64,000 bases of DNA, taken from NCBI GenBank assembly GCA_000091205.1, contig AP006486.2; one strand, given 5' to 3'. The stretch comes from Cyanidioschyzon merolae. Its lineage: Eukaryota. The translations under genes were made by a program, and so were the position numbers. Below, in pieces: positions 1 to 40,320 of the stretch. Numbering within the stretch: the stretch's first letter is position 1; the number at the start of each line of letters is the position of its first letter. Below the pieces are notes generated by a model, which was not told the DNA's origin, ran no database searches, and was given only the letters and a program-made list of their open reading frames with translations.

Positions 1-2049
1 AATGCATTGATGAACATGGCCCGTAACGTACGGGCACACGACACAGGCCGCGTGCGGACGGACGCTGCTCTGCCCCCTGTTTACCACATAGGAGCGGAAG
101 GAGTAGGACTCGGCTGTTCGAACACCAGATCTAAGCATTCGTATGCAGAGTGAGCGAATCGAGGATCTGTTGCTCGATGGACCATGCACGCTGTGCAAAA
201 GCTCGCTGTACTGATTTCAAGCGAATAGGACACATAGCGGTCGTTGTCCATACAACCAACTCGCTTCGGAGAGCAGTTCATGTACATCAGTGCATCGTGC
301 ATCATCTTGCGGGAAGGTTTTGGCGGGTCTGTTCGACACAAAACCTCAGTTGTCTTACAGGACGCTCCTATGCGATTTGCAGCACGAAATCAAAAAGTAT
401 ATACGAGTTATCGGAATCGATACACGAAAGCATTACTTGGGCGACGCACTCGAGCATTCAGGACGGGCATGATTGCAGAAGCTGCGCCCTGCAGTCCACG
501 AATTCCTCTAGGGGCTTCGATTTCCCTCTTTACAAATTAGTCACAAAGATTCGAGCTGAGCTCGCTAACAACGGTCAGGTATCATCCACGTTCGATTTTG
601 AATACCGCCTGTTGCTCATATACAGACCATAATGCCGAACAAGCATCTAGTTATTCTCAGAATGCCGCCGAGCAGACTCATACAGTACCCATCAGCCGTG
701 ACGCGACTTGGTCGCTGTGGGGCACTCTGTCTGAGCAAAGCGCGAGTCCCCTGGCAATAGAGCCTCGCGCCTCGACAGCTCATGGCAGGCGCCAGACGAA
801 CACATGCGAGAGCTGCACAAGTTCAGCGAAGCGCTTCCCCTGTTCCGACCTTACCCCGGTGTCGATACCCGTACACGTTCACGAAAGTAGACTTTGCAGC
901 CAGACCCGAGAGCGATTGCAACCGATTGACACTAAAACAATGGTTTTCGTTCGAGTACCCTGTGACACGTGAGAGCGGCCGGGTCCTCGCCGCTGCCTCG
1001 TTCCAGACCAGCTACTCTGCAGCTGCGTACGCTACGAACAAGAGCCAGCAACCCACGCGCACCGTTTTCAACCGCCCGCGTGTGGAGCAGAGGCATCACA
1101 AGAATCGTCTTTCCACTCGGGCCCCAGTGTTCGTGACTCGTACACAGCAGCTCGAAGCGAAGTATCAATCGCCGAAGCGAGCTGCTCCACGAGACGCAGT
1201 TTCTCGCTGAGTTCTTGAGTTTTCGACTGCAGACTCTCCACGGTGGAGTTCATGTCCCTGACAGCAAGTAAGAGTTCCTCTAAAGCGGCTATAGACGCTT
1301 GTTCCGGTGCTTGCATTACCCCGCTCTCTACACAGGAAAAGCGCACAGTGTTTTGTCCAGCAAACTGAGTGCCAATCTAACAGCGGTGTCCGCGCAGCTG
1401 GGCGGCGCCGCCTCCGCCACGTACGACAGCAGAGCGAACGGGACGGGACACGCAACCCGCCGCGTGCGCGCCTCCGTTATGCTTTTCCATCTCAATTGCG
1501 TTCCATGCCCAGGTGCGTTTCATTGAATGCTCTCTCGTGGTTCATAGCAGAGGCGGTGGAAGTGCGTCCCTTTGATGCGCTAAACATCTGAGGGAAATGG
1601 ATGGGCGTGAAAGTCGGGAGTCCTGGACAGCTTCTATAGCCGGGTGTCCGAAAAAGAAATGAAAATAGTTTTCCCTCGCCGACAATCGAGCGAGGAAGCG
1701 CAAGTAACGGCGAAGAAGACGACGAAGAGGGTAGACCGGCGAGAAAAGTGTTTATCCTGCGGGAGAGTCACGAGACTGTTGCTGGACAGAGGCCAAGAAC
1801 GCTTGGGATCCTCGCACCGGTGCAATCAACCAGAGGCAATGCACGTACGGAGTTCGTGAACCGAAACGTAACATTGCCATCATTACGCGACGATGCTCGT
1901 GGAGCTGACGCGAGCCAACTTTGTTCGTGTAGCTCTAGCTCCAGCAGAATCGGCAAACGCTCAAACACGCAGGGCCTGGTGAAATCCCAAGTTGTCCAAC
2001 TGATGGACGTTGCTAGACGTGAGGGGAACCTCTTCAATCATTCGACAAG

Positions 2050-2640
2050 GTGAATGAAGTTGTCTGCGCCTTCTATTCGCGTTCGATCGTACATAGGACG
2101 GGCGCCCTGCTCGGCGAATACCCATAGACGCTCCGACCGTTTCGTCCAAAGGGAATCTCATGGACTGAGAAAAACAACGTCCCTGTGCTTCATACCGAGC
2201 GCGAAGATCCAGGGACGCTGCCGTTGCGATGATCTCCGCAGAAGATGGTCGTGAAAGAACCAGGACTCTGTTTTTGCGATTATACCCCAGTGTTTTCAGG
2301 ACCACACGAGCAAGCTGCTGAGAACCAGTGACGCCCGTAGCGACTAATATCGTCGCTTTTGCATCCCGCTTGGTGATCAGCGGGTCATTTTTCTACTATA
2401 GAACGCGAGCAGTCTTTAAAAATATCGGTTGCTGGCGCGGAGCGCATATCCTTCTCTCTTTCAGTATTCCACAACCATTTGAGCACTGTGGTATGACTCA
2501 CCTGAGGGAGGAATGCAATCCTGCTTGCACTGCGCAGTAAACAACATATATCCGATAGTCAATTCGTCTAGAATCCATGCGGTACCTGGCATCGTGATGT
2601 TGATCGCCATCTATCCACCGCAGCAGGCGTGGTCCACCAT
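2050..2640. repeat. Dispersed repeat, copy A (about 550 to 600 bp, non-coding)
   Basis: Aligns by eye at roughly 75-80% identity with 14010..14580. Shared blocks include cgaataCCCATAgACGCTCCGACCGT, TTGCGAT..GAAGATGG, CGTCGCTTTTGC, AAAATATCGGT, CAGTAAA and CAATTCGTCTA. Boundaries are approximate. Confidence 0.6.
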
Positions 2641-2835
2641 TCAGTCGAAACACGACCATGGCGGACGATTCGTTGGATTGCACCGCAGCCGCTGCGCGCC
2701 CGCGCATTGTGCATTCATGGTATTCAGCCCTGAGTCTATGGTTCGCGACTAACAAGATATTCGTGAGCCCTGGAGACTTGAGTGCTTCTCTAACTCTGCA
2801 GACGCCTTGGTGAGCGGGCCTTTCGAAGCGTTTTC

Positions 2836-5412
2836 TTGGTGGAAACGTGGCAGAAGGCTCGGCCGTCCGGGGGTGCGTTGGCCGCGAAGCGTGCAGCGAA
2901 CGAAACGCTGACTCAGCAAGGGTGCGGAGCAGCTTTCGTTGCCACTCTGCTTTTCCGCTGGGAAAAGATGAGCGGTGGTCGAATAAGTTCAAGCGATGCG
3001 CTTCGTCTACGAGTGCCGGCAACAGCGCGTTTGTCCACAGCTTCCACGAGTCTGTCGTGGTCCGCGGGAACCCAGCGGAGCCAGCCGCAAGCGTCTCCAG
3101 CGGCAGCTGCCCAGAGCGTACCCGAGCTGGACCGCGGTGCCTTCCTTCGCCGAGACTATGTGAACCGTGAAATAGAACGGAGGGCGGCGGAGTATACACG
3201 CACCCGAGAACTTCGCTTTTTTGTCAGTACTTTTAACGTGAACGCCAAACCGCCGGTGTTTGACCTTTCGCCGCTGTTAAAAGACCACCGAGCAACACCA
3301 GCTTCACGCGACGCGCTCTGGGAGTCATGGGCAGGCGCTCACGGTGCTGCCCTCGGGCCGCCCAGCGCTGGTATGAAAGCTGGAATCCCAGAAGTAGCGG
3401 CGGACGCTGGCGACGTCCTCATCTTTGGCTTCCAGGAGGTGCAGAAGCTCTCCGGGACCGCCGCGGTCATCACTGACGAGTCCCAAGGCCGGCCTTGGCG
3501 TGACTCTATCCAAGCGCTGCTCGACAGCATCGGCTCATACGTCTGCGTGGTGCAAAGGCAACTGGTGGGCATTCTGCTGCTCGTCTTTGTGCGAGCAGAC
3601 CACGCAAACGCCGTGCAGAATGTTCAGATCACGAGCGCTGGCACTGGGATTGCAGGTGTGGGTGGAAACAAAGGCGGCGTGGCTGCCAGATTCCAGCTCT
3701 ATGACACGAACATTTGTTGTGTATGCTGCCACTTGAGCGCGCACGAACAGAATCTGGAAAAACGCAATGCCGAGTATCGTGCGATCATGGAACGGGTCGT
3801 CTTCAACCCGATGAGCGATGACAACGGGAATCCTGCACCGCTGCTGCCGAGCTATCCTGGCTCTTATGCCGTACCACAAACAACTTCGATCCTCGATCAT
3901 GATGTGGTCTTCTTCTTCGGTGACTTGAATTACCGTATCGCGCTGCGCCCCGAAGAAGTTCTCCGATGCATCAAGGCCGGCGATTGGCAGTATATGGCCA
4001 GCCACGATCAGCTGAATTCTTGCCGGTCCATGGGATTCGCATTCGAGCCTTTTTCTGAGGCACCTCTACAATTTGCACCGACCTACAAGTACAAGCCATT
4101 CGAGAACGAATATGATAGTGATCCGGACAAGCCGGGTACATTGAAGCGGACACCCGCCTGGTGCGATCGCATCCTCTTCCGCGGAAACGGGATGCGGATT
4201 CGCTCGTATCGAAGGCATGAGATTTTTGCTTCCGATCATCGACCAGTTTCGGCCATTTTCACAGTCCCTATACAGCAGATCGATCGCGAGCGGCGGCAGG
4301 CCGTATGTGATCGTCTGTGGCGAGAGATTAGTCGACGGGAAAATGAGACCATACCGCGGCTGGCGGTCTCCGAAAACGATATTGTCATCGGAACCGTTCG
4401 CTTTCGATCACCGCTGTATGTACACTTCACCATCACCAACGTGGGCCGCGTCCGAACACGCTGGTACCTTCCGCTGCAGTACATCAAGAAATGGATGCAC
4501 TGCGTTCCGTCGAGTGGAGAGCTGGAACCCAAGCAACAAGTGCGCGTCCAAATCAAAATTCTCGTCGACGAGCATTGTGGATACTCAGCCATGCTCGCCG
4601 AGGCACCGCGAATAGAGTGCACGCTCGTTGCACAGGCGGAAAACGGTGCGGCGTGCTTTGTAGCGCTACACGGCCGCTATGCGCCCACAATTTACGGCTG
4701 TTCGCTCGAGCTGCTGGCCTCGCGGAACGGTGGCAATGGGTTCATGGTGCCGGAACTCTGGCTCATGGGTGATGCGCTCTTGCATCGGCGCATCCTGGGC
4801 ACGAATCGCAACCTTTTCGTAGAAAATTGCCCAGACACGCAAGCAGTCGAATCGTTACGCGATGCCTTGGCAAACACCACCGCAGCTGTTCGCGAAGAGG
4901 CGCTTGAAAAGGCGCCGCCCCTGGCCCTTGGGCAGGTACTCGTAGAGTTTCTGCGCTACCTCGAGACACCAATCGTCCCATTCGACTTATATGATGACTT
5001 TATGCAAGCAGCCGGATCTGGCGACGCACGCGCCGTCCTCCACGTCATGACTAGAGCCCCGCCTATCTATCGTAATACCTTTGTGTATGTGCTTGCCATG
5101 GTAAGAGAGCATCTTCAACGACTTGCGCTGGATTTGCGGTCTGAGCGAGACGCGAATCCAACGGCGTCGCTAACCCTGAGACTTGCGCACGCTTTTGGGA
5201 CTGCACTACTGAGACGTAGGCCATCCGAACAAGCAGCTGGTGGCGATGCTGGCGACGCCCATCTCGACAGGGCGCGCTGTCTGCTGCCGCTGCTTCGGGC
5301 TCTTGAAACAGCCGATGATACGCGCGATAGCGATGCCGCGAGCCAGACTACGGAAGATGCAAGCAATGGATCCGCGTTTCCTCTCTATGAACTATTGTTT
5401 GACTCTGTATAA
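2836..5412 (+). CDS. Inositol polyphosphate 5-phosphatase, OCRL/INPP5B-like (5-phosphatase, ASH and RhoGAP-like domains)
   Basis: 858-aa ORF. EEP/5-phosphatase motifs are present (FQEV, GDLNYRI, WCDRILFRG, SDHRPV). A beta-sandwich ASH-like segment and a RhoGAP-like tail follow (VPELWLMGDALL, LVEFLRYLETPIVPFDLYDDFMQ, NTFVYVLAMVREHL), matching the OCRL layout. The start may be the internal ATG at 2968. Confidence 0.8.
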   Translation: MVETWQKARPSGGALAAKRAANETLTQQGCGAAFVATLLFRWEKMSGGRISSSDALRLRVPATARLSTASTSLSWSAGTQRSQPQASPAAAAQSVPELDRGAFLRRDYVNREIERRAAEYTRTRELRFFVSTFNVNAKPPVFDLSPLLKDHRATPASRDALWESWAGAHGAALGPPSAGMKAGIPEVAADAGDVLIFGFQEVQKLSGTAAVITDESQGRPWRDSIQALLDSIGSYVCVVQRQLVGILLLVFVRADHANAVQNVQITSAGTGIAGVGGNKGGVAARFQLYDTNICCVCCHLSAHEQNLEKRNAEYRAIMERVVFNPMSDDNGNPAPLLPSYPGSYAVPQTTSILDHDVVFFFGDLNYRIALRPEEVLRCIKAGDWQYMASHDQLNSCRSMGFAFEPFSEAPLQFAPTYKYKPFENEYDSDPDKPGTLKRTPAWCDRILFRGNGMRIRSYRRHEIFASDHRPVSAIFTVPIQQIDRERRQAVCDRLWREISRRENETIPRLAVSENDIVIGTVRFRSPLYVHFTITNVGRVRTRWYLPLQYIKKWMHCVPSSGELEPKQQVRVQIKILVDEHCGYSAMLAEAPRIECTLVAQAENGAACFVALHGRYAPTIYGCSLELLASRNGGNGFMVPELWLMGDALLHRRILGTNRNLFVENCPDTQAVESLRDALANTTAAVREEALEKAPPLALGQVLVEFLRYLETPIVPFDLYDDFMQAAGSGDARAVLHVMTRAPPIYRNTFVYVLAMVREHLQRLALDLRSERDANPTASLTLRLAHAFGTALLRRRPSEQAAGGDAGDAHLDRARCLLPLLRALETADDTRDSDAASQTTEDASNGSAFPLYELLFDSV

Positions 5413-8551: not shown

Positions 8552-8623
8552 TGCGCAAGCGAGGAATCGAACCTCGATCTTCACGGCCACAACGTGATGT
8601 TCTGACCGTTAAACTACTTGCGC
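8552..8623 (-). tRNA. tRNA-His (anticodon GUG), nuclear type
   Basis: The reverse complement folds by hand into a 72-nt cloverleaf: acceptor GCGCAAG/CTTGCGC, D-stem GTTT/GAAC, anticodon stem TCACG/CGTGA with loop TTGTGGC (anticodon GTG), T-arm CGAGG-TTCGATT-CCTCG, discriminator A. Position -1 is A, so G-1 is not genome-encoded, which is the eukaryotic Thg1-dependent pattern. Confidence 0.8.
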
Positions 8624-12785: not shown

Positions 12786-14009
12786 TTGCGTTGCCGAAGA
12801 AGAGCGGGACGCGGCCCTGCGTTGCTAGACTTTCACGCACCTACGCTCAGATTGTGGGCGAGCTTTAGGCGCACGTCAGGCGCAGCGCGCTGCTGGGGCG
12901 CTCTTCTCCGTGGGTACGACGCCGCAGCCGCCGCAGCCGCCGCAGGCACCCTCGCTGTTGGCTCACGGAGGCGGTGGCGATGTGCGCGCGTCGGGCGGCA
13001 GGTCATAATGCGAGTGTCCTGTTTATTCCATAAAGTTCTGTTTCATCAGCGACACGCTGTGGTATGCGAAAGTGTTGGGCTGGCTCTTGTGCATGGACCG
13101 ACAACCGTGTTGGCATGCAATGGAACAGGTACTTTACCAAGACATACCATTGAAACAAAAGATGTCTTCAGGGAATGGAGTATATATACGCACCAGCAGA
13201 CGACTCCCAGCCTTTATTGACCGGCCCACTGTTATAGTTTTTCAGTTTATCTAGGTACAGTTCGGGTGCCAAAGACTGCCCCACGACGTTGGATCGCTTC
13301 AGCTCTTCGAGTATCGTCTTCAGCACCGCATATCGTCTGATACAGATGGAGATGTTGAAGTCTTGCTTGAATATACCATCGCAGGGATTGCTGGCACTTG
13401 TACCCTCTCTGCCGCAACAGGCTCGTCATTGTCCCGTCAAGCAAACTGCCTTACTCGCCTATCTGCCCTTTTCTTGTTAGTCATTTGCTATTCTCTGCTC
13501 GATGGTCGGCGTGAAGAGGGTTCTTCTTTTTTGTGAAATTCGCCTATGAGAGTCCATCAGGATCCCCGACTTGCGTGTCCATAACTTTCCTTCATTTTTT
13601 TAAATCTTCAAATGAACGCACTTGTTTATGCCCAAAGGTGAGGAGTCTCCCCCGACTGCGAAGGACTTGTGGAAGAAAGATGACGCGTGCCCCAATGTCT
13701 ACATGTGCTGAACGCTTCAGCGAGTCGCCCAGTCCAGCGATCATTACGTTTTACCATAGAAAACACTCTAGCCATGGGTTTGAACCAGGCAGCGCGCTAA
13801 GGAATGAAGAGCAGCTCTGCCCGCGGATAGAATCGGCAAATGCACGAGCGCAAAGGGAATGGTGATATGCCACGCTGTCCAATGAGGAAAGTCTCTAGGA
13901 GTCAGGGAGAAAAGTCTTCAATGATTTGAGAAAATGGTTGGTGCTATCGTATGCGCATTCTCTACGAGCGGAACTGAGGCCACTACTGGAATCCACTACA
14001 TCTAGAACA

Positions 14010-14580
14010 GATGATGGATTCCTGGTTCTCTTCGCGTTCGATTCTGCATACCACGGTCTCCTTCAGTGCGAATGCCCATATACGCTCCGACCGTGTCATC
14101 AGAAGCAAGTCTCACCGACTGAACCAAACAGATGTCACTCAGCCGCAAACCAATCGCGAGATTCCACGAATGCTGTCGTTGCGATTTCGGTGGAAGATGG
14201 CCATGCGTGAATTGGTCACTTTTTGCGTCTGTATTCCAGTGTTTCGAGGACCAAACGAACAAACTGTTGGGAAACAGACACGCCTCTGGTGGCTAATGTC
14301 GTCGCTTTTGCTTTCCGTAGAGTGATCAACGTGTCGTTTTCAACCATGGACCGGTTGCATTTTTTGAAAATATCGGTATTGGACGCGTGGCCCATCTACT
14401 TCTTTCTTTTAGTGTTCCTCAGCCATCTGCGAGCTTTTTTATGACTGACCTGGATGAGGCATGCAGTCCTCCTTGTACTGTACAGTAAAGCGTATGCCCT
14501 GCAGGCAATTCGTCTACGATCTGTGCCGAACATGGAGATCGTGATTACGATCTCCAGCGATGCACTGCGCAAAACTATTC
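14010..14580. repeat. Dispersed repeat, copy B
   Basis: See copy A (2050..2640). The shared blocks occur in the same order; boundaries are approximate. Confidence 0.6.
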
Positions 14581-16560
14581 GGCAACACTCGGCGCGGGTG
14601 AAACATAACTGAGTTGAAAGACTATAGCGTGCAGATGCTCAAGCTCGTGTAACCTTTCACTGTCGTCAACATCAGTCCTTACAGGCTTTTTCTGCGTGTG
14701 TTTCCTTTCCGTTTATATTATCTTTGGCTATAAATACAACGGTATCGGGTTTACCGCTAGCTCCATTGGCAACAGCTGAAGACGCTGATGGAAGCGCTCA
14801 GGTCTCGATTTCTGCCGTTCCGGGTATTGTTCATGCATTTTATGTACAGAAGGAATTTGCGATTTCTGTTGGGTTGCACGCGTTCCTGTGCTGTGCAAAC
14901 GGCCTTGGTAGGCACTCTGCAGCGGTGACATTGGAACGTCGCCAGGTGCTCCCATACATTCACTCTATATGGCATTCTCCGGTGATCACCGTATGGAGTT
15001 TGAACGCCCGCAGCATCGCCCGGTACCTGCCCTTGACGGGCAAAGAAGGCTCCCGTCGATGCCGTCCTCCGATTTAGCGTACTGCATCGTACTCTCCCGT
15101 TACGGGCTTGTTCCAGATGCTGGCCCGGGAGAGTACTCTGTCTGCTGCAGATGCATGTACTTGCTGTTCTATTCGATATACAGGCTTTGTCGAGCTTGGT
15201 TTTGTACGTCATGAAAGAATTGCAGGGAGGAAAAGCTAACCTGGTCAACAAGTCGGGAAACTTCGATTCGTCCCGCTTTATCCGTGCAAATCGGTAACGC
15301 ACACTTGACTGGAGGCGATCCCTGGGATCATTACAGTCCGAGTCCAGCACCCTTGTCCATCTGAAGATGAGAGACGACAGCATCTGGCAACGCATCCTGT
15401 AATAGGGATCATGCTGATGTCGAATGCGGTCTTGTCGATAGCCACGAAAGAGGAATGTGTTGGATTTCGGACGGAATTGCTCATTGTACGTGACAATTTC
15501 AGTGAACTTTAGGAATGAGCGTGTGAAGAGGTCATCCAGGGACAACCATTTTGTTTCCTGTTCAATAAAGCTGCGCGAATCGCTGCGTCGACGATTTGCG
15601 ACGAAACAGAAATATCGAATACTTGATGCAAGCGTGATTTGAGCATGGAACTCGGAAGTGAGCGAAACGTGGACGCATGTACTCATGATTTGGGTAATGA
15701 TATCGGTTACTTTAGGAATCCTTATTCGATAGCGTTGCGAATCGCCTCTATTCCGTCAAATTCATGAATTCCAGCGGCTAAGCTTCGGAGCCACATCAGA
15801 TAGACGACCGAGTATCCTGGACCTTCGTATGAATCCGTATGTCGGTATCGCTGTACTTCGGGCGTAGAAATTTGACATTTATGGATAATTTGGGACGAAA
15901 TCGAGTGACGGAGAACAGAGCACGCAGTTCACTTTTCGAATTAATCTTGTACGTATCTCGCACGAGACAACTTAAGTGCCTGCCTGGATATTCTCAATAT
16001 TTCTCGAAGGCTTAAGATTAGCTCCCGCTTGTCGTGACTGAGAAACGGAGGCGTTGCCGGTGGCGCTCAGCGGTCCCAAGGTGTCGTGATGCAACTCGTT
16101 GCGCTCTGAACGGTCGAACAGGGTTTGGGCCCCTGAACCCGTGCCTCTCCGAGCTGATCACTTTCTGGCATCGAAGGCATTGGAACAGGCCCTAGCCGAT
16201 AAGATGCAGCACAGCAACCTCATTGGAATCGTTATCGAACTTGAGGCGCACTTTCCGTCACTGCAGACTGAAGATGCTTCAACTCCATCCAGCTGAGGAA
16301 GCTGCAGTTCGCAGCTGTGCAACAGTGGTTGTGCCCCAGTGAGGCACTCTTCGGATATTTGTTTTCATATCGGATGCTTTACAAGTGCACCGGCCTGTCC
16401 GAACTGAATGAGTCACAGCACAATCTGAGTATCGCCATGCTCTTTACGTTCCCATCTAATACAGGGCAACCTGGCTCCATGACCATCTTCTCTTGTACCA
16501 GATATCCGCACCAGCGACATTCCCTGGTGTCGTTGTATTCGAAACTGCTGCTCGCTCGCC

Positions 16561-17232
16561 TCATTCCATCTTATAGACGCAATGGCCTGGTGGTCCTGCA
16601 CTCCTCACAAACAACGTATAGATGAATGCGCCGTACAGCTGGGTACCGTTCTGGATCGGATCAATTGTGAATGCGGTTTCCCTGTTACCAGGGTAACAAT
16701 TTGACGGCAGGATGCCAAGCGCCGAGTTTGTTGAGTTTTCGAAATCAACGACCCCGCTGCTCAACACGAACGGAAAACCAACGGGCCCTGCTGCGGTCAT
16801 GTTGAACGCAGCGCAGGAGACACCATCAACGAGCACGTTTCCACTCGGAACTGTACCCGGTGCAGAAAACTTGTGGCGAACGACGATTTCCGGCGTACAG
16901 TTCGTCGCGGAGATCGGCGTGGTATAGAGCTTATAAGTTCCGGCCGGGACAGTGATTGACTCCAGCGTCTGCAGCGGCTGCAGCGCAAAAGAGCTATTAT
17001 AGGCAGCAATCGTGCACGTCGACACGCAGAGTGCCGAAGAGGGGCATAAGGCGCCGCAGTAACACTCCGTCTCACAGGCTGTATCGGGGACCACTTTCAG
17101 GCTGAACAGCCCCAGTCGACTGGAACCGCAGTCATAAAGACACCGTGCAGCTCTGGCGGAGCTTGCACTCAATGAAACTACAACAATAGCCCATATGGTG
17201 AGTGCAACTGCAAAATACCGCGAAAAAATCAT
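16561..17232 (-). CDS. Hypothetical secreted cysteine-rich protein
   Basis: 223 aa with an N-terminal hydrophobic signal-like segment (FAVALTIWAIVVVSLSASSARA), many Cys residues and several N-x-S/T sites. No family recognised. Confidence 0.4.
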   Translation of the reverse strand: MIFSRYFAVALTIWAIVVVSLSASSARAARCLYDCGSSRLGLFSLKVVPDTACETECYCGALCPSSALCVSTCTIAAYNSSFALQPLQTLESITVPAGTYKLYTTPISATNCTPEIVVRHKFSAPGTVPSGNVLVDGVSCAAFNMTAAGPVGFPFVLSSGVVDFENSTNSALGILPSNCYPGNRETAFTIDPIQNGTQLYGAFIYTLFVRSAGPPGHCVYKME

Positions 17233-18670
17233 TGGTTGCTACTTTCTAAGTTCCACTCTCCTACACGCAAGTGCTTATACACTCGTAGGCTCAATTCTGG
17301 TTCCAAGAAAAATGACGCATTGATACGAGATTGCACGTCAGTTACGGGCAGCGCACAAAGAGCGCTCAGATCAGCGTAGAAACGATCGAGCGATCGTTGC
17401 TGAGCTCGCGTACGGGATGCACCAACGCACGAGAAACTCCACTCGATACGCCATGCGGTTGCGTCAAGCATGCGAGCACAGCCCAAAATTGTTCATTCGA
17501 TACGCTGGACACGTCACGTGAATGCAATGCGCGCATGCGGGCGCTTGAGGCGTGAATGAATGGCGATCGTCGGGGTATACGATATCTGTGCATTTCTATC
17601 CTCTAAACTCAATTGTGTTCCATCGCCAGGTGCGTGGAATCAAATGCTCTTCCGCGGTTCATTGCAGACGTGCTCGATGTGGGTTCATTTGAAGAAATAA
17701 AAAGTTCTGCGAATGGAATTGGAGACTTCTGGAAGCCTGATTTCGCCGGCTGCCGCAGAAAAACGAAAAGCAGTGTTGAGCGAAGAGGAACAAGACAGCA
17801 TGAAGAGGCAGAGGCAGGAGGCCCTGCGTCAAAAGCTGCTCGAAAGATGAGAGTACGACGAGACGGTCGTGGACGCCTGTCTTCTTGTACATGTCAAGGA
17901 TCCGTATGAGCAAACGATGCAAGCGGACGTCAGAAACCGTGTCGAGTCGTACCGCATAAGTATGATAAAGGCCGCTCCAAGACTGATGTATGTGGTAACG
18001 AAAGTGTATCGCGACATAACGCACGCGGAAACAATCGAGTTTCCAGAGGAAATTTCCAACGTAACCTTCATCGGCCACCTGACGCTTGCCACCGGGGAAA
18101 CGTCGAGGTGAAATGAGCGGGTGCATGGCCTCCATGAAAATTACGCCAAATACCGCCTCAACGGCACTCGATACAGGGATGACTCGGGTGTTTACACCTA
18201 CGGGGCGTTGAATTACCCTACGAACCTGAGAAAGCATATGAACATGAACCTGAAACGCTTCATGGTACGCGCCGTCATTGCGCTGTACCCGGGCCTCTCT
18301 CGCAAAGGGATACGAGTCATCATCCGTGGCATCACGAATGATCGACAGCATGAACAGGAGATCGAATTCTTCCACAAGAAGACATCACGCAAGAGAAAGA
18401 ATGAAGCTTCTGTAATCCGTGCGGCTATTATTGAGCACCGTGCAGTCTTGGGGCTTGTCAACCTACAAGAAAAGATATCAGATAGGAAAAAAGATGAAGA
18501 AAGATGTTATCCCCTAATCCTGCGCAATTTCGTGTTTTTTGACCGAGAACTCGAACGCAAAGCCGACATGGAGCTGAGTAGGGGAAAATGCGCAGTCGGA
18601 GAGACGCAAGGCTGCGGTTCCGGGGAGGCGCCTCAATATCGTTCCGTTATGCTACGTCAAGTCACGCGTT

Positions 18671-19099
18671 GTGACAATCGACTCCACAATCCTTTATACC
18701 ATCATGAAGGAGATCAGTCCCGAGTTCAATGCAAGCAGGGAGAAGTTCACCCGCGGAGACGGGAAAATCTACCGGATGAATATCTTCGATTTCAAGCGCC
18801 TCAACACCAGCAAGAAAAAGTTATTCACTGGGATGATCGAAAGCGATGGAGTAGCCGTGTGTGGAGACTATCGGCGCTTGAAGGCGGATCGCCCAGTTCC
18901 GTCATCGGCTTCGCCCTTGGCGAAGCATGAAGAAAACAAAGAGGCTGGCAGTACGAAACAGGAGGCGCAGGAGGACGACTGTGCCGTTGGCGCGGACCCG
19001 GGAACACGAATATCGTACCCATCGCAGCACCCAAGCGTGCGGAAGACGGTATCGACGGCAACTTACGCCACAATGACATGCGACTTCCAAAGTACTTGA
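18671..19099 (+). CDS. TnpB/Fanzor-like fragment carrying the putative RuvC-I motif (GADPGTR)
   Basis: The frame-2 ORF has protein-like composition; its D-P-G motif resembles the Fanzor1/IS607-type RuvC-I. Confidence 0.45.
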
Positions 19100-19311
19100 G
19101 AGCGAAAAATTGCCGATAATCGGGAATAATGAATGCAAGGAAGGAAAGTGAGACATGGAATGCAGGAGTGAGCGCGCACCTGGAAGCTATGAGCAATTTC
19201 GCGAGTCGTGGATCGAACTTTCATTTCTTTCGTGAATTCATGGAATATCAAGCTGCTCGTGACGAGGAGCTGTGGAAATAGCAAACAGAACCGCGATGGG
19301 CTCGTCTGCGA

Positions 19312-19860
19312 ATGAATCCGCACAGAGGGAAGCAGCGCGCGTTCGCGAAATTTTTCAAACAGTTGATTGCCCTCATGGAGGACAAGAGTCAAAGGCTCAT
19401 ACTAGCATACGGAACTGGGCGCTGGGCACCCGGAAAAGGGTGTGTACCCGCCCCGTCGACGAGAGCGTACAAGGAGTGCGCACGATGTTTTGTCACGATA
19501 CCGGTAGATGAGCTCCGAACATCGTATGTGGATCATGAACTGGGATGTCCACCTCCGAGAGTCGAGATGGAAAAGTGCCCGTGGAGCCCTGAGGATATAA
19601 AAAAGCACGGAGAGCTGACGGAGCATCAAATGGCTCAGAGGGCGCGAGTTGGAGGACTCCTTGCATAGGTGAGCTCTACCAACGGTAACAAACGCACTGA
19701 CTTCGTGAACCCAGACTTTAACGCCGCTATCAATATCAGACGACGTGCTGTATTGGAGAAGAGATATCCCGAGCTAACGAGAGCCAACTTTGTCGGGCAA
19801 CCTCTTAAGGTGGCACTCTACGAGAAGCATTTGAAACCGATCGCAGCGGGCCGGTCGTAA
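19312..19860 (+). pseudogene. TnpB/Fanzor-like C-terminal part (RuvC-II candidate, zinc-finger-like region, RuvC-III) with an in-frame TAG at 19666..19668
   Basis: ORFs 19312..19668 and 19669..19860 are in the same frame, separated only by a TAG. The downstream part carries FNAAINI. A candidate GT..AG intron at 19092..19288 would join frame 2 to this frame. Confidence 0.5.
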
Positions 19861-20209
19861 ACGGCCGGGAGACGCCTGCCGGGTGGATACCTATCTACCC
19901 TATGTGGCCGTGGAACATTTTTCGTTTCACTGACAAATGAGTTTGCGCTGGTAGCGCGTACCGGGTCGTTTTCGAATGAGAGTCTTTCTCAATAGTGCCT
20001 CTCAAGAGTCTTCGATCGATAGCTTGGAACCTTGGGGTAGCGATTCACCGTGCGCAGCGGAGTCTACACATACCTCTACCCTCTCGTCTCGGACAAGCCC
20101 CGCACGGGGTCCAAGCTCCTACGCACGGTAACAAACTCGAGCAAGTCGACCTGGCGGCATCTGCTCTCGCACTGTCTCGGATAGATTAAAGGCAGCGCAA
20201 CTGCGTGAC

Positions 20210-20701
20210 TTGAACCTGATGGATACCGGCGAACTGCATGACCTGACTGTAAAAGGCGCTGTCGTTACCCAACTTGAGCGGTGTGAAGTGGCCTGCCAGA
20301 GACTCTTCCAGAACCTTGCGCTATTGGGTCTTGAACTGCAGAATTCAGAGAGCATCACTGAGGGAGTTTGTGACTCAAAAGCAGCCTCAGACCTAGGAAG
20401 CTCCGTGGAGCTTCTCGAAAACGAAGAGCGGGCGCTGAGACTCTGTGTCGACAGGTTCGTACTGGAGCTCCGGCAAGTAGAAAATCTGGCCAAGACTCTA
20501 GATGGAATCAGGGAGGAGGAGGAAAGGATTCTGTCGCTCGAGCAGCGCTCCATCGAGCAGGCAGAGAGATGCTTTTACTTGTGGAACGATGCCCGAGAAA
20601 TGTTGCGGGGAACGAGGTTGACCTCGATCAAAGAGGTGCTCGAGTCAGCAGCTCGCTATCCGCGCATCCCGTCATGGACACCGTTGCCTACATCGAACTG
20701 A
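20210..20701 (+). CDS. Hypothetical coiled-coil protein
   Basis: 163-aa Glu/Leu-rich ORF with heptad-like character and no recognised family. It sits just downstream of the Fanzor-like island. Confidence 0.3.
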   Translation: MNLMDTGELHDLTVKGAVVTQLERCEVACQRLFQNLALLGLELQNSESITEGVCDSKAASDLGSSVELLENEERALRLCVDRFVLELRQVENLAKTLDGIREEEERILSLEQRSIEQAERCFYLWNDAREMLRGTRLTSIKEVLESAARYPRIPSWTPLPTSN

Positions 20702-21802: not shown

Positions 21803-22873
21803 ATGTTGAGCAGTGCAGTTCAAGGTTTAAGCTTTCTGAATCGACAACGACGACTGTTGCCGCTGCTGCTGCTGCAACGCTGGTCTCGTTGCGAGCTGGC
21901 AACTGCAGTCAAACCGAAAGCAGAGACCGGCGCTGCTGATGATGCCGTTGCAACTGAACATGACTCTTGGAGCCGGGCGACTTGTCAAGAAGCCGAAAGT
22001 CCTCCACAGCGAACCGCTGAGCACGCCAGTTTGCTCGTTTCCGAGATATTTGCGTCGATCCAGGGCGAGGGTCCCTTTTGCGGTTCACCTTCGATTTTTC
22101 TACGCCTCGGTTTATGCAACTTAGAATGCATCTGGTGTGACACGAAATACACTTGGTTATTTAGCGAGCAGCGCCTAGCCCGGCTGCAGTCCCGTAGTCG
22201 CGCCCGTGACGGCAGTGCCACAACACCCGGTTCAAGTCAGCAGCAGGAGCAGCCGCTTGCGTCGCAGAAAGCCAACTTCTGTACAGTTTTTGATAGACAC
22301 AAGGAGCTGCGACGGCTCTCTATAGAGGAAGTTTGCAGATGCATCGAGCTCGCCCGGGAAGGAACGCGAGCAGATGCTGTAGTGGTCACTGGGGGTGAGC
22401 CACTTCTGCATCTAAAACCTCTACGACCGCTCGTGAAGCATCTCGTACAGGATCTCGAGCTGAGAGTCGAATTCGAAACGAACGGCACGATCATGCCGCA
22501 GGTCCTGCTTGATGTCGATCACGAAGCGAAACAGCGAATCCACTTCAATGTTTCACCTAAGCTAGCGAATTCGCTTCAGTCAGCAAAACAGCGATTGCGA
22601 TGGGATATACTCCATTACTACGCGACCCAGCTTCCGCACCAATCAATCTTCAAGTTCGTTGTTGATCGCGAAGAAGACCTCGCTGAAGTGGAAATGATTG
22701 TGAATGAACTGCAGTTACCGAGGACCCGCGTCTGGCTCATGCCGCAAGGCACGACAAGCGAATCGCTCGCACTTGCTGCCAGAGAACGAGTCATCCCTTG
22801 GTGTCTGCGCCTCGGCTTCCGCTACAGCCATCGTGTCCATATCGCGATATGGAATGATCGCAGAGGAGTCTAG
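21803..22873 (+). CDS. queE: 7-carboxy-7-deazaguanine synthase (QueE)-like radical-SAM enzyme with an N-terminal extension
   Basis: Matches E. coli QueE blocks from memory: IFASIQGEGPFCGSPSIFLRLGLCNLECIWCDTKYTW (Cx14Cx2C cluster), VVVTGGEPLLH, ETNGT, NVSPK, and a C-terminal RLGFRYSHRVHIAIWN. A roughly 90-aa N-terminal extension and an internal low-complexity insert are present. Confidence 0.85.
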   Translation: MLSSAVQGLSFLNRQRRLLPLLLLQRWSRCELATAVKPKAETGAADDAVATEHDSWSRATCQEAESPPQRTAEHASLLVSEIFASIQGEGPFCGSPSIFLRLGLCNLECIWCDTKYTWLFSEQRLARLQSRSRARDGSATTPGSSQQQEQPLASQKANFCTVFDRHKELRRLSIEEVCRCIELAREGTRADAVVVTGGEPLLHLKPLRPLVKHLVQDLELRVEFETNGTIMPQVLLDVDHEAKQRIHFNVSPKLANSLQSAKQRLRWDILHYYATQLPHQSIFKFVVDREEDLAEVEMIVNELQLPRTRVWLMPQGTTSESLALAARERVIPWCLRLGFRYSHRVHIAIWNDRRGV

Positions 22874-25800
22874 CTACATTGTCGCCGCTCGGCAATAGAT
22901 TGATCAGTTGCGTCTGGACGCGCAAGGTCAGCTTCTGCATACACACTACCGAGCCCATTTACTCTTGCAAATAGAATGGTATGTAGCTCGCTCGATTCCT
23001 CAGCTTTCATGGAGCGCGTGGCTTTCGTGAAGCGCAGCTACCAGCATAGCGGCGAGTTCCGGAACACCTGCACCAGCATGCGTATTTGCACCTGATTGTC
23101 CTCCTCATCGATATTCAATAGAAGAAATGTATCTCGTAGATCGGAGGAAGGTCGCGGAAAGAGTTTATGCTGTGACTGCTCGCTTGTGAAAAACGGGCCA
23201 ACTTGTACAAGTCAGTCTTTGTATGGTCAGCAAACGGATGAACACCAGTCTCGATGTCTAAGCCTGTGCATCAGAACCCTAAACCCTACTTGTAAAACGC
23301 TGTCAACGCGAATGTCATGTCGTCGGCCCACTCCTCTCCATAGATGCAATGGGGAGTACCACAACAGAAGCCAGGCGGTTTCAGGTTTCCCCAGCATGGA
23401 TTTCAATCGCGGTGAAGAGACACGGATTCACAAAAAGAAAAAAGCACGCCTCTACGGGGGATTGTCTTGCATTGCACAAAAAACTACCGATTTCGCTCCG
23501 AAATGCGACGGTGTGTTACGTCAGGGAAGGATGCTCGTCGCCATCGATGAGAATTTATTCGGACGACATGCTAGACCTCTGAGTGGGTTCTCGAAGAGGG
23601 GCAAACAGTTGTTCATCCGGCACAGACAACAGAGCATAACGACAATATCAGGCATATCAGCGATTCAAACGTGTGGTCGCCTTTAAAGCGCCAGACGGTA
23701 AAGTTTGCTCAACATCTCATTCTTCGTTGAAACACCTCGTGGCTTCCCCTTCCCAAATAACTCTGTCTTGCTGCCGGACAACGTCGCTGTCTATAACTCA
23801 GAAGCGGTCAATGAGCATGCAACTGCGATTGGCCTTGAGCTGCTGTATCGCTAGCCTAAGCTCACGGGTCAGTACACGAGCCGTTCGCAGTGATCAAACC
23901 GAAGTTGTTCGACAACTCGTTCTGTACTCTATTCACGAGCCTTGAACTGCCGTGTTGCTTGCTGGCTCGCAAACGAGAAAGAGCGAGAAAACGCACTCGG
24001 ATCCGGCGGTATGCGCGCGACGGAAAGCTACTTGTGGATTAGAAAATACGTATGCAGAAAGATGAGCTGGATTCGCTCCATCTAACCAGTGCGTACGAAT
24101 CCGGAAGAACAAAACGAATATAGAGTATAACGACAGCATCCATGTGAACACGCTATGACAATTTGAAGCAGCAGAGAGCAACGGAGAAAGAAGAGCGAGA
24201 TCTTCCCGAAAAGATCACCAGAAAGATCAGGAAGCACATTCTCTTGGAGCGGAAACATGAGTTTGATACGCAACTGGAAAATCCTGCTTAGCAGAACGTA
24301 TGAACCGGGTGAAACTTCCGAAAACTGAAGTGCAGGTTGCCGTTCATCGTAGCGTTCCATCTGTCTAGGGTGACAATTGTGACGCATCTTTCGACTTGAT
24401 GCAAGTCGTTGAGCAACGGGTTGTAAAAGTAACGGACGTAGACCTGCCAGCTGTCCATTTTCCTGTGGAAATTTTGATCGAACATTCGAGCGACGACACA
24501 CCTGATGCTTGGGACAGAAGATGCAACCCGACCAGATCGAATGAATCATGGATGTGCGGAAACGCTGCCAAACATACTTTGACACGTCGATGGGCGACGT
24601 TGATGGTCAGAACGTCAACAGCTCAGGTGCCAACGAATATCAAACAACCTAGAAAATCATATGCCGGTCGATCAAGAGCGCTTCATCAAGCACAACCTGT
24701 AGGCGTGACAGCCTCACCTAATTTGCGCAGAAAAATTGGCACTCATGGAAGGGATTCCTGGTGTGCAGATAGATACGAATGACGAGCTGGCGCCTGAAAA
24801 GGTAGAAATGGTGGCGAGCTCGGAACAGAGGTCGCAACGACAGCCAGAGTCGCTGCAGATCACCCAAGCGTATCGTGTTGCTGTCGACCGCGGATTGACG
24901 CACGTCGTGTCCAAAGAAGAGTTGAGAAGCGATGCGGGCGTGTCTTGCATCTTGCGCTGCCAAGTTTCCGCGGATAGAGACCTCTCGAGCAAAGCAGACT
25001 TGCTTCGCAGAGTCCGGGCGCCCGTGTCTCCTTTAGCGTCTATTCGACGCAATCCGAATTCGACACATCAGGGACCATGATATCACCCTAGACGCTCATG
25101 ATATGGAAGGCCCATGTAGTGAGATGTATTTCGTCTCTGCGAGCAAGGATGCAACATTCGAACGAATTCAGATATTTCAGTGGCGGGACTCCTTCAAGAC
25201 TTTCCGTTTACGGTAAGGAAATGGAGATCACTTTACACGAACGATTGAGACGCACGGCGTATCGTTCTGCATGTGCCTGCTCGAAGTCGGCAAGCCCGGT
25301 CTGCATTGCGTATCGGAGGCCATGTTCAACTGCGCAAGACAGATGGAGAGGTAGGCATCGTCAACGGCAAGCATCCAAAGCTGGTCAACGTTTCTATTGT
25401 ATGCTATTGTAAACAGTCGGGCATAAAACACCCCAGGTCGCATACCACCTACTAAAATGATGGTGTCAGGACGCCTGTCGACACCCTTAGCTCCGTCTCA
25501 GGCGGAGGAGATGCGATGCACGCTTCATCCAGACAGAGTACACGAGCGTCCAAATGGCGTACGCAGACGAGCTTCGCCAGGAGTTCATGCGCCCGTGCTA
25601 GGCTGCCGGAGCTCTCTGAGGTCCGCAGTCAAGATGCATGCATTCACCGAATTCCTTGCATCGTTCGAAATGGAAATAATCTATCTTTCGCGTCCTTCAG
25701 TTGTAGTCCATGACGCTGCACCTACTCTGTCACGCAAGGGCGAGCACTTCTGTCCGTCCGATGGGAGCGCACAACGAGTGTATGAGTCAATGCTTCGAGA

Positions 25801-26598
25801 TTTCCAGTGATGCATTCATGACGACTTTCACGCATCACGAGCGCGGGTGCTCGCTGCATGAGGTAAACAAAAAATGAGCGTTAAACAGAGAGTGATGCAC
25901 GCGATGGTGTACAGTTCGCTGACTGAACGTCAGATAACGAGACAGTCGAAGAGGCGTTGCTTGTCATCGCATGATGCCAACCGCGACCATACGCGCAAGC
26001 ACCTTCAGCACCGAGGCTCTGCGCCTCGGTAGGCATCCGAATATATCTCGTGCTTCCAGAGCGTGCAGTAGTTTTGTTTCGAGCATTTTATCGAGTGAAT
26101 TCTTTAGCACTAAATGTGGGCGTTGTGCTTCAATGCTGCAGACTTGCAGTGAAAAACAACTGTAGCCCGGAGAGTGCAGTGGATTCTCACCTCCAGTACG
26201 GCACTGGTGTGGAACGGTTCAGCAATCCAGCTGCACGCCTGGAACGCCGCACACATGCACCGTGAAAGAATCTCCCAGGGGAATTAGCTGATGATACTAA
26301 TGCTCGGTAATTCGATGGTGCTGAGTATACGAGCACGAGCATCCAAAAAACAATACACTCTTCAAGGGCCTGTATATAACGCAGCTTCCAACGCCGGCAC
26401 TTTGTGTGCGTTATGGCGCACTGAGTCACCGGCCGATGAACCGATCCTTTCGCGTGAGAGAGCTCCCACTAACGCTGACCTCTTCGCTGTGCAGAATATG
26501 CGGCATCGGTGCGTTCTGCTTGACGCACAACCTTCCTAAAGACAATGCATTTCTAGCGAGCGAACCTCTGACGCAGCGCGGGTAAACGCAGTTACGTG

Positions 26599-39019: not shown

Positions 39020-40320
39020 GAGCGTAAACTGCGGGCCTGTAAACATTCAGAGCGACGAGCGGTGAAAGTCCCAGTCGTGGACGCTGCATACCGGAGTGCT
39101 TGGCGCCAGGTGCTTTCCTGTCTGAACGAAGTCGCTGTGAGAAGAAAACATGGTCAGAACCGCGTCCTTGGTATAACATGGAGAGACCCAACAATAATCG
39201 CTGCCGAGAACTTGTCGATGGACAAGTGTCGGAAGCGAGCACACCCTTTCCGGAAGGAAACACGAGTAGCATGCTTTCAAGCTGGTGCCTTTTCCTTCAT
39301 TACGTCGCTTCCGTTCTGTTCGCGCCCCCAGGACGACCGATAGAAACGTAAGAGCTCGTATCTCGCCCTGGAACAGGAAAACCCATCTTGAGACGCCCGA
39401 GCAGCGCTCGATAAAAGGCATGCTTTGTCTCCGCCAATTGAAACGCATCCTCCCCACACATGTAAGAGTGCAAAGCGTCAACGGTTAGGAAAGAGCCATC
39501 TTTGAGTACACAGACGCTTCCGCATTCCATATACAACACAGTTCGGTTTTGTGTGCAGCTGGAAGCAGTACAGCGGGTTCTTCGAATAGCGCCCACGTCA
39601 GCAAGCGTCCCAGGGGCTTACTGCAGGGCAAAGGTTACCATTATGATCAATAAAATGAAGTACAACATTTCACAATCAGGGCGTATGCATATACCTACTC
39701 ATAGACGCCTCCGAGCGTTCTTTGAACAGCCATCTGCTATCTACTTCAGTTTACCCATGCACACGTCGACCATGAAACGTTGCCGCACGAAGTTAAACGG
39801 CGTCAGCGGCGTTTTTCCAGCATTGGGAGTCGGATGCCTGCCTGTAAGCGTCGCACAGGTCGCGGAGGTCTCCCAGCATGTCCTTGTGCACCCCTTTGGG
39901 ATCAGCTCTCTGGAAGGGGCCTGCTGGGTCCGAAATAGACACAGAGTCTTGCCCCTATTCTGGATGGACGATACCTCAAGCTGACGCCCTCAATGGCATC
40001 GCTACGTACTACGCTCTCCGTGTCGCTTCCATGCATGCGCTAGGGACGAACTTTCGAACGCTTACAGCAGGCTCGGCGCCCCGTGGACCGTAGGAAATAG
40101 CCGCTATCTCCGAGAACAAGTACAGGCAATGTCATTTGAAGGTTGGAAGAGCGATGGGCGCTTTTGCGGATCGCTTATATCAGGCTCCGTCGCACATCAC
40201 AGTGCAGTGCACATATGCCGTCAACGGAATCGTGAGAGGATCCGCGTCATTGATGATCATTGATATCTCGTACATTTTGAGAAGATCTGGTACATACGGT
40301 ACGCTAGGTTCTTCGACCCG

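Follow-up and report, generated by a model that had tools for sequence, protein, structure and literature searches.

A fixed, decayed copy of the published Fanzor1-encoding element family CMe-1A on chromosome 4 of Cyanidioschyzon merolae

The sequence considered here belongs to CMe-1A, a Fanzor1 family of C. merolae whose consensus and Fanzor1 classification were published by Bao and Jurka in 2013 (Mobile DNA 4:12; PMC3627910). Some 150 copies are known, which individually show about 80% identity to a 3169-bp consensus that encodes a 734-residue protein in one exon, and the first 635 bp at its 5' end are, according to those authors, common to TE-N2_CMe (PMC3627910). Solved Fanzor1 proteins are available from Parasitella parasitica (9cf0), Spizellomyces punctatus (8gkh) and Guillardia theta (9cer), and like CMe-1 these belong to multi-copy, transposon-borne genes with a single large ORF. 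A rearranged catalytic site with an alternative conserved Glu is typical of Fanzors (PMC10530073). TnpB, the OrfB of IS200/IS605 and IS607 and the nuclease of OMEGA systems, shares the RuvC fold motifs and the location on the 3' side of a mobile element with CMe-1, and its guide RNA is expected to come from the element's right end (PMC10432273).

Against this background we analysed a Fanzor-like region of the C. merolae nuclear genome. With a probability of about 0.93, we read it as a single, fixed and neutrally decaying copy of CMe-1A, an old, multi-copy family of mobile elements encoding an ancestral Fanzor1 protein of about 734 amino acids, with no intron in the gene.

Location, extent and family of the copy

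The window, meaning the whole stretch of 64,000 nucleotides analysed, derives from chromosome 4 of C. merolae 10D, and eight of its ORFs match BAM79159-79172 exactly. Two host genes flank the CMe-1A copy, which measures about 2.3-2.5 kb and whose ends can be located only approximately. Its alignable core spans 17597..19893 on the plus strand, which corresponds to positions ~800-3084 of the published consensus. A DNA profile built from 29 paralogues gave nhmmer hits at 17597-18979 and 18919-19893, and blastn aligned 17609-19879 with consensus positions 800-3084 at 80.35% identity over 2285 bp, the divergence published for CMe-1A members. The start of the gene had been put at 17613 in an earlier reading of the sequence alone (hereafter the sequence-only reading), but what begins there is an ORF in the wrong frame, at an arbitrary point. 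Across the element region the GC content is 0.515, compared with 0.532 for the window (21st percentile among windows of the same size), and the proposed AT-richer island is weak and not distinctive; a plainer signal is the purine richness of the coding strand (A 28%, G 28%). Apart from a tRNA-His at 8552-8623, an Rfam scan of the window returned nothing.

Upstream of the core, alignment of the paralogue 5' regions with MAFFT revealed patchy likeness of 17453..17596 (plus strand) to consensus positions ~650-790. This weak stretch, which neither BLAST nor nhmmer detected, probably continues the element into a diverged 5' untranslated part, with an uncertain boundary. By nhmmer and blastn, consensus positions 1 to ~650-800 were not recognisable in or upstream of the copy, and the 635 bp shared with TE-N2_CMe were likewise not found upstream of it, where there is no likeness to consensus positions 1 to ~650. 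A separate fragment matching consensus positions 64-265 lies on the minus strand at 39965-40164. At least four different 5' modules occur among the paralogues, and the 5' boundary of the element is both fuzzy and modular.

Repaired for its lesions, the translation of the copy is 68% identical to the published CMe-1 protein over 716 amino acids (residues 4-719, two gaps). The copy and CMe-1A thus share their organism, a nucleotide identity of about 80% and amino acid identity from end to end; terminal inverted repeats are absent from both, and both place the 3' terminus at the same hairpin. The copy departs from the consensus in its unrecognisable 5' part, in five stops and two frameshifts that disable the gene, and in the strong divergence of its terminal ~100 nt at the 3' end. 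It is identical in family to CMe-1A, and the description of an uncharacterised, lineage-specific copy given in the sequence-only reading is superseded by the consensus of 2013 (PMC3627910).

The coding remnant and its relation to Fanzor1

The coding remnant runs along the plus strand in three pieces. The N-terminal piece (17713..18579, frame 1) begins with an ATG at 17713, aligns with CMe-1 residues 4 to ~290 and is interrupted by TGA codons at 17848-17850 and 18109-18111, both common to 10 independent assemblies. A change from frame 1 to frame 2, visible as a shift between tblastn HSPs, follows within 18579..18595 (~18580), where the copy has a net deficit of 2 nt relative to the consensus; the sequence here is the same in nine assemblies, bar one substitution in one of them (L004). 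The middle piece (18581..19003, frame 2) ends with VGADPG and contains the RuvC-I Asp codon at 18995-18997. Frame 1 is then restored by a second frameshift within 18997..19000 (~18998), a 1-nt deletion in a run of C (GACCCCGGG in the consensus, GACCCGGG in the window) that is identical in nine assemblies, and the tblastn HSP in frame 1 accordingly begins at 18997 with PGNTNIV. The C-terminal RuvC half (19003..19860, frame 1) carries a TAA at 19117 and TAGs at 19279 and 19666, and its terminal TAA at 19858 comes 15 codons prematurely with respect to the consensus.

In total there are five in-frame stops (17848, 18109, 19117, 19279 and 19666) and two frameshifts (~18580 and ~18998), one of them within the RuvC-I motif, and with the premature terminal stop the copy is unable to make the protein; no ORF at this copy could give a nuclease. 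The suspicion in the sequence-only reading that the copy was decaying is thereby borne out, although the single residual TAG counted there (19666) is one of five stops. All nine independent assemblies that cover this TAG, which was to be resequenced, have it. Because the lesions are identical in 9-10 independent environmental metagenome assemblies, whose orthologous loci are 99% identical, they are real and not sequencing errors. Additional indels are polymorphic among the assemblies. Variable sites in the element number 6-13 per 500 bp, as in intergenic sequence, compared with 0-5 in the neighbouring conserved genes; polymorphism in the element is at the neutral level.

Every peptide cited in the sequence-only reading was found in its place: VGADPG in frame 2 at 18986-19003, IALMEDKSQ at 19366-19392, LILAYGTGRW at 19396-19425, CARC at 19477-19488 and NPDFNAAINIRRRA at 19708-19749. 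The nucleotide features named there were likewise confirmed, namely GT (19092), AG (19287-19288), TGA (19097) and TAG (19279 and 19666). The reading frame was misjudged in one stretch, where frame 2 was kept beyond GADPG: the text at 19004-19096 (...DFQST) is out-of-frame noise with no homologue, whereas frame 1 is homologous from ~18998 onwards. The conceptual translation has 48 relatives, with E-values down to 1e-205 that are far beyond chance.

The family to which this translation belongs is a member of Fanzor1. A profile of 68 diverse relatives (A3), searched against the PDB, matched the Fanzor1 proteins of Parasitella (9cf0, E 7e-21), Spizellomyces (8gkh, E 1.3e-12) and Guillardia (9cer, E 1.2e-6), and aligned the three RuvC catalytic motifs with those of the solved structures. 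A clade profile from which CMe-1 members had been left out still matched the translation from the window, in pieces that were colinear and with a score of 375 bits. The homology extends at profile level over the WED/REC and RuvC regions, and the shared motifs are D-P-G (RuvC-I), D-E-F/Y-R/K-T-S (relocated Glu) and N-R-D-x-x-A-x-x-N (RuvC-III). The likeness is distant, however, and single sequences and narrow profiles fail where the family profile succeeds: a profile of 29 close paralogues (A1) gave a spurious angiogenin match alone in the PDB, and the Fanzor link appeared after the family had been widened by an all-protein profile search. Since the narrow profile finds nothing relevant in the PDB, the link to TnpB and Fanzor is a transitive one, made by way of more distant relatives. 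For P0001, a near-intact paralogue, an AlphaFold2 model built on a shallow alignment has a pLDDT of 33.6, too low for the model to lend structural support.

In the alignment of 68 members, D484 and E656 do not vary and D725 hardly does (P0001 numbering). The first of these columns corresponds to the RuvC-I Asp (GAC, 18995-18997), directly after which the copy is frameshifted. The invariant Glu column falls at 19510-19512 within VDELRTS (family motif VDE(F/L)RTS), which aligns with DEFRT and DEYKT of 9cf0 and 8gkh, and not at the MED to which RuvC-II had been assigned; the canonical RuvC-II position reads LILAYGTG, without a Glu. The RuvC-III Asp (19714-19716) lies in NPDFNAAINI, where the preceding Arg has become Pro in this copy. 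The only gene of the CMe-1A element once encoded a Fanzor1 protein of about 734 amino acids that, going by homology with solved and tested Fanzor1 proteins, would have been an RNA-guided DNA endonuclease, with a RuvC site formed by the Asp of GADPG, the relocated Glu of VDEFRTS and the Asp of RDFNAAINI.

Pfam and NCBIfam scans gave no significant model on the window translation or on six close paralogues. The search with OrfB_IS605 and OrfB_Zn_ribbon models, suggested in the sequence-only reading, left the full translation without a Pfam family at E<=1, and the sole NCBIfam match was to Cas12b (E 0.088 over 26 residues at RuvC-III). PF07282 (Cas12f1-like TNB, formerly OrfB_Zn_ribbon) matches 12 of the 68 clade members weakly, but gave no hit in the window or in the close paralogues. 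The Cys-rich stretch around CARC is present, yet its second Cys is private to this copy (CARR in the consensus) and the zinc-ribbon Cys are not conserved. SpuFz1 and GtFz1 have CxxC...CxxC zinc-ribbon cysteines that the CMe-1 clade does not conserve; the CMe-1 consensus reads YTHHELGC...KC...LLALVSTT between the Glu and RuvC-III, with two Cys and no such ribbon.

The 3' end, related copies and short derivatives

Family homology delimits a diverged 3' terminal region at 19861..19990 (plus strand), which we consider a candidate source of guide RNA (omega/fRNA). Conservation among 41 non-redundant copies falls to noise after ~19996. The right boundaries of the paralogues are sharp, at 143-183 nt past residue 752, and a recurrent family hairpin (CGTCGTTCGA-CTT-TCGAACGGCG) stands at the 3' end of the consensus, which is also where the published consensus stops. 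In the copy studied here, the 3' region is the most diverged part and is without this hairpin. RNAalifold returned an almost empty consensus structure (-1.55 kcal/mol), paired cells (82.9% vs 82.2%) and the covariation score (0.118 vs 0.111) resembled those of shuffles, and two hand-built structure models brought no gain over shuffles. An exhaustive helix scan yielded mostly conservation-driven noise, and single-sequence folds of the region had z-scores of -0.3 to -2.0. Covariation has low power here because the copies decay neutrally after insertion. The ancestral protein would have used a guide RNA for which the 3' end of the element is the candidate template.

As the sequence-only reading had proposed should be checked, further copies exist, and the family is multi-copy. 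A search with a six-sequence alignment recovered 324 related stretches in hot-spring metagenomes, and profile searches found at least four further relics within the 64-kb window. These copies needed profiles to be seen, given that self-BLAST of the element against the window returned nothing at E<1e-3. One stretch that had seemed to be an intact copy (L035) was rejected, as it is out of frame over the N-terminal 87 residues. For the CMe-1 family, no transposase was found to go with the element.

The window also contains short, internally deleted derivatives of ~450-640 bp, at 1478-1925, 13196-13623 and 46182-46739. These retain ~280 nt of the 5' end and ~260-330 nt of the 3' end, have one deletion junction in common and are found at no fewer than nine independent loci. 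In keeping only the two ends they resemble the MITE-like and PATE-like deletion derivatives of DNA transposons and IS200/IS605 elements, but the CMe-1 derivatives are without terminal inverted repeats and no target-site duplications were identified for them.

Alternative explanations and implications

Three other explanations of the region were weighed. The first, in line with the sequence-only reading, is that splicing of a 197-nt intron at 19092..19288 would join frames 2 and 1 and restore an intact, functional or nearly functional Fanzor nuclease gene. A GT and an AG do stand at the ends of this segment, its removal joins the two frames in phase, and introns occur in other Fanzor genes (PMC10530073). 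Such ends alone are expected by chance, however, and the segment is decayed coding sequence (plus strand, ...ELWK*QTE), which in frame 1 is colinear with residues ~455-525 of CMe-1 and with every intact paralogue; its amino acid identity to the consensus and to paralogues (P0001, P0007) is 62-68%. The frame change that the intron was meant to explain is the 1-nt deletion ~95 nt upstream, and the frame-2 text just before the segment (19004-19096) is the stretch that has no homologue. Splicing would moreover leave four other stops and another frameshift. The C. merolae genome has few introns, only a few dozen in total. The ORF of the published CMe-1 consensus is a single exon ("734 (1)"), and we reject the intron, considering an intact spliced gene exceedingly improbable. 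Equally little credence is due to the idea that the gene is a prokaryotic IS605 or IS607 TnpB, brought in by recent horizontal transfer or contamination, and not a eukaryotic Fanzor1. The D-x-NAAxNI motif of RuvC-III is common to TnpB, and the weak Cas12b match falls on this motif. With the profile of 68 relatives, however, the closest proteins of solved structure were without exception eukaryotic Fanzor1 and no TnpB or Cas12 chain appeared at E<10; the catalytic Glu is at the rearranged, Fanzor-type position; and the protein of ~734 amino acids has a long N-terminal extension and is about twice the size of TnpB. No TnpA partner was found, and the copy occupies a syntenic nuclear locus across many independent assemblies.

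More consideration is owed to exaptation, in which a host function has preserved the copy, or the RNA region at its 3' end, for example as a regulatory RNA or as a guide RNA acting in trans for an intact Fanzor elsewhere, but this too we regard as very unlikely. All 10 environmental genomes sampled have the locus in the same place, a distribution that is nevertheless expected of any old insertion among genomes only ~1% diverged. At the family level, the sharp boundary and recurrent hairpin of the 3' end and the amplification of derivatives with only the two ends would suit a retained RNA. Against this, the element shows intergenic-level polymorphism with segregating indels, covariation in the 3' region does not exceed controls, and it is this region that has diverged most in the present copy, with loss of likeness to the family hairpin.

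The sequence-only reading recognised a Fanzor/TnpB-like sequence correctly, as a Fanzor1 remnant, yet the paper of 2013 had already described the family, with its consensus and its assignment to Fanzor1, and the copy itself is defunct. What the analysis corrects is the intron, which does not exist, the frame misread past DPG, the lesions, which are not assembly errors, and the position of the catalytic Glu, which is relocated. As a tentative suggestion that we think rather unlikely, CMe-1 may once have been an RNA-guided Fanzor1 system that lost its zinc ribbon, or may still be one in rare near-intact copies such as P0001 (locus L013) of hot-spring Cyanidioschyzon, and its short derivatives, which combine the 5' end with the last ~260-330 nt containing the RuvC-III codons and the terminal hairpin, could be satellites that supply only a guide RNA and depend on proteins acting in trans for their mobility or upkeep, much as PATEs or omegaRNA-only elements do in bacteria. 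If so, such satellites would exist in a moderately thermophilic, acidophilic alga whose genome is otherwise extremely compact. The additions to the published record are minor, consisting of a sharp right end with a hairpin, a modular 5' region and an amplified derivative that joins the 5' and 3' ends; these are the features that would be needed to rebuild a consensus CMe-1 nuclease together with its guide RNA from a thermoacidophilic host.

A copy of the CMe-1A family on chromosome 4

The element at ~17597-19893 (+) is a dead copy of CMe-1A, the one Fanzor1 family that Bao & Jurka listed for Cyanidioschyzon merolae in 2013 (PMC3627910). That family comprises ~150 copies, each ~80% identical to a consensus of 3169 bp with a single-exon, 734-aa protein; it is without terminal inverted repeats, its target-site duplications are listed as undetermined and its transposon class as unknown (PMC3627910). 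Using the consensus DNA and protein from the supplementary files of that study, we found that the window matches consensus positions 800-3084 with 80.35% identity over 2285 bp, and that the repaired translation (715 aa) aligns with the CMe-1 protein over 716 positions at 68% identity, with just two gaps. By this similarity the element is an ordinary member of CMe-1A, and not the uncharacterised lineage-specific copy proposed in an earlier sequence-only reading.

Seven of the eight ATG-initiated window ORFs that we looked up are identical to annotated proteins of C. merolae strain 10D (BAM79159-BAM79172), all from a single record, which places the window on chromosome 4 of the red alga's nuclear genome. 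The element lies in an interval without annotation, flanked by a 223-aa ORF (16561-17232, -) and an ORF of ~160 aa (20210-20701, +). An antisense ORF of 238 codons (17659-18375, -) that overlaps the pseudogene is annotated as a gene by prokaryotic callers in metagenome contigs; it is without a Pfam match and is probably spurious. Elsewhere in the window, an intronless ORF at 21803-22873 (+) encodes a 356-aa radical-SAM protein whose annotation in metagenomes is 7-carboxy-7-deazaguanine synthase (QueE), a bacterial-type queuosine-pathway enzyme with its gene in a red-algal nucleus, and a tRNA-His (GTG) at 8552-8623 (-) is the sole Rfam/ARAGORN match.

Reading frames and lesions

The coding signal in the region is not due to chance, as its conceptual translation matched 48 proteins, the strongest at E 1e-205. 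The sequence-only reading was thus of something real, partly misread. Its peptide strings were all recovered where it had placed them, as were the GT at 19092, the AG at 19287-19288 and three stop codons, while its description of an AT-richer island is weak, with a GC content of 0.515 vs 0.532 window-wide (21st percentile among equal-sized windows).

The reading path, set by tblastn with intact relatives and by alignment to the published consensus, runs in frame 1 from the ATG at 17713 to ~18579 and in frame 2 over 18581-19003, with VGADPG at the end of this segment, before returning to frame 1 at 18997/19003 and continuing to 19857 (all +). The first frameshift (~18580-18595) is a net 2-nt deficit, and the second, within the RuvC-I motif, reflects the loss of 1 nt from a run of C (consensus GACCCCGGGAAC vs window GACCCGGGAAC). 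Five in-frame stops interrupt this path (TGA 17848, TGA 18109, TAA 19117, TAG 19279 and TAG 19666), and it ends with a TAA at 19858, 15 codons before the end of the consensus ORF. The frame previously followed beyond the DPG motif was wrong, the frame-2 text at 19004-19096 having no homologue. We also reject the intron proposed at 19092-19288: this segment is coding sequence, matching ..RFSRARYYRESGIMNARKKIETWNAGMKEHLEAMSEVTSRGADFQAFREFMEVRVAHWEALWEEYTKPRW.. of the consensus and all paralogues residue by residue.

We then compared the window with ten orthologous loci in environmental assemblies (L002-L011), which are 99.0-99.4% identical to it across the element; the neighbouring phosphatase gene has exact sequence matches on 23 metagenome contigs. 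Each of the five stops and two frameshift sites is unchanged in all of the 9-10 assemblies spanning it, so the resequencing of TAG 19666 that had been advised is unnecessary. Three further single-base indels are polymorphic among the orthologues. The element carries 6-13 variable sites per 500 bp, the same as intergenic DNA, vs 0-5 in conserved neighbour genes, a pattern of neutral decay.

Relationship to characterized Fanzor1 proteins

A Pfam scan of the window translation and six paralogues gave no match, an NCBIfam scan of the window translation returned only Cas12b (26 residues, E 0.088), and a profile of 29 close paralogues had no match in the PDB. When 1.84 billion representative proteins were searched with a profile, 1,531 relatives were identified (846 with E<=1e-10), and a family alignment was built from 68 full-length diverse members sharing 28-40% identity with the C. 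merolae protein. In this alignment D484 (numbered as in the paralogue protein P0001) in G-x-D-P-G and E656 in V-D-E-F-R-T are invariant, and D725 in R-D-x-N-A-A-x-N-I is nearly so. The 68-member profile matches the solved Fanzor1 proteins of Parasitella parasitica (9cf0, E 7e-21), Spizellomyces punctatus (8gkh, E 1.3e-12) and Guillardia theta (9cer, E 1.2e-6), with all three catalytic motifs aligned to those of the CMe-1 clade, and the window translation scores 375 bits, in colinear pieces, against a profile lacking any C. merolae member. The original Fanzor/TnpB assignment was therefore right.

Two of its details were not. The Glu of the 'MED' proposed as RuvC-II is not conserved; the canonical RuvC-II position is occupied by A-Y-G, and the conserved Glu, E656, lies further downstream. 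A 'rearranged catalytic site' is a defining trait of Fanzors (PMC10530073), and the CMe-1 clade shares this relocated Glu. In the Cys-rich 'CARC' motif, the second Cys is private to this copy (consensus CARR). The clade lacks a conserved CxxC...CxxC zinc ribbon, a defining feature of TnpB-type proteins, and PF07282 gives weak matches in only 12/68 of its members.

Element anatomy, short derivatives and the candidate guide RNA

Eighty paralogous loci were taken from hot-spring metagenomes that also hold C. merolae-like chromosomes. Their right boundary is sharp, 143-183 nt beyond residue 752, and is marked by a terminal hairpin, CGTCGTTCGA-CTT-TCGAACGGCG or the variant CGTTTTTC-TTTT-GAAAGGCG, at which the published consensus also terminates; several copies carry short (TGG/TTG)n-like tails beyond it. 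The left side is modular: sequence from ~consensus 646 is common to all copies, and at least four unrelated modules lie upstream (for example, those of L016/L044/L090, L030/L046, L017/L022 and L039/L051/L076), resembling the 'variable 5' regions' of Mucor MCi-2 Fanzor elements (PMC3627910). In the window copy, similarity begins at 17597 by BLAST and nhmmer and is patchy back to ~17453, and the last ~100 nt (19894-19990) are strongly diverged.

In the RuvC half, conservation across paralogues is ~0.90 at codon positions 1+2 vs ~0.75 at position 3, so the protein was under selection during the family's spread. Only one of ~70 loci is near-intact: L013 (3183-5516 of contig Ga0078972_1000527; protein P0001) has a 778-codon open frame with the three catalytic residues and a stop 37 codons early. 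In a different hot-spring metagenome, the orthologous locus L012 (Ga0080006_1147940) is interrupted, with a longest frame of 538 codons. A ~25-aa tandem repeat, ..KHEE(N/K)KEA.P.TQEVQDNDF(V/I)V(D/G)A.., directly precedes the RuvC-I GADPG in P0001, P0007 and P0012 (loci L013, L053/L051) and at window 18905-18985; the window copy and the consensus have one unit, P0001 four and P0012 ~5-6.

Profile searches located other copies in the window. Three short elements of ~450-640 bp (1478-1925, +; 13196-13623, -; 46182-46739, +) join a 5' portion of ~280 nt, comprising the untranslated leader and the first ~50 codons, to the final ~260-330 nt, comprising the RuvC-III codons and the 3' end, and align mutually across a single common deletion junction. 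The same architecture recurs at at least six further independent loci, at least nine in all (including L036:6251-6882, L044:7407-7922, L046:7415-7940, L055:8694-9255 and L076:8925-9313). The common junction and this recurrence mark these elements as an amplified non-autonomous deletion derivative of the Fanzor1 element. A fragment lies at 14553-14632 (-), and a match to consensus 64-265 (39965-40164, -), within the part equated with TE-N2_CMe (PMC3627910), adjoins a 3'-end fragment (39702-39794, -); the two may together form a further composite short element. At ~24430-26005 (+) lies a colinear, full-length-like relic in a very decayed state, detected by the clade profile (pieces at E 2e-4 to 0.01) and by that of CMe-1 (E 9e-5); it is either older or of another subfamily, and its position coincides with a kilobase of lower GC and purine skew.

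Analogy with Fanzors that have been tested predicts that the guide RNA is encoded by the element's 3' end. RNAalifold gave an almost empty consensus for the family's 3' region, folding z-scores were -0.3 to -2.0, and two explicit structure models had 83% of cells paired vs 82% when shuffled and a covariation of 0.118 vs 0.111, in a test of low power because copies decay neutrally once inserted. The openings offered by this element lie at the level of the CMe-1A family rather than at this locus: its guide RNA, the loss of the zinc ribbon, the mechanism of transposition and the short derivatives.
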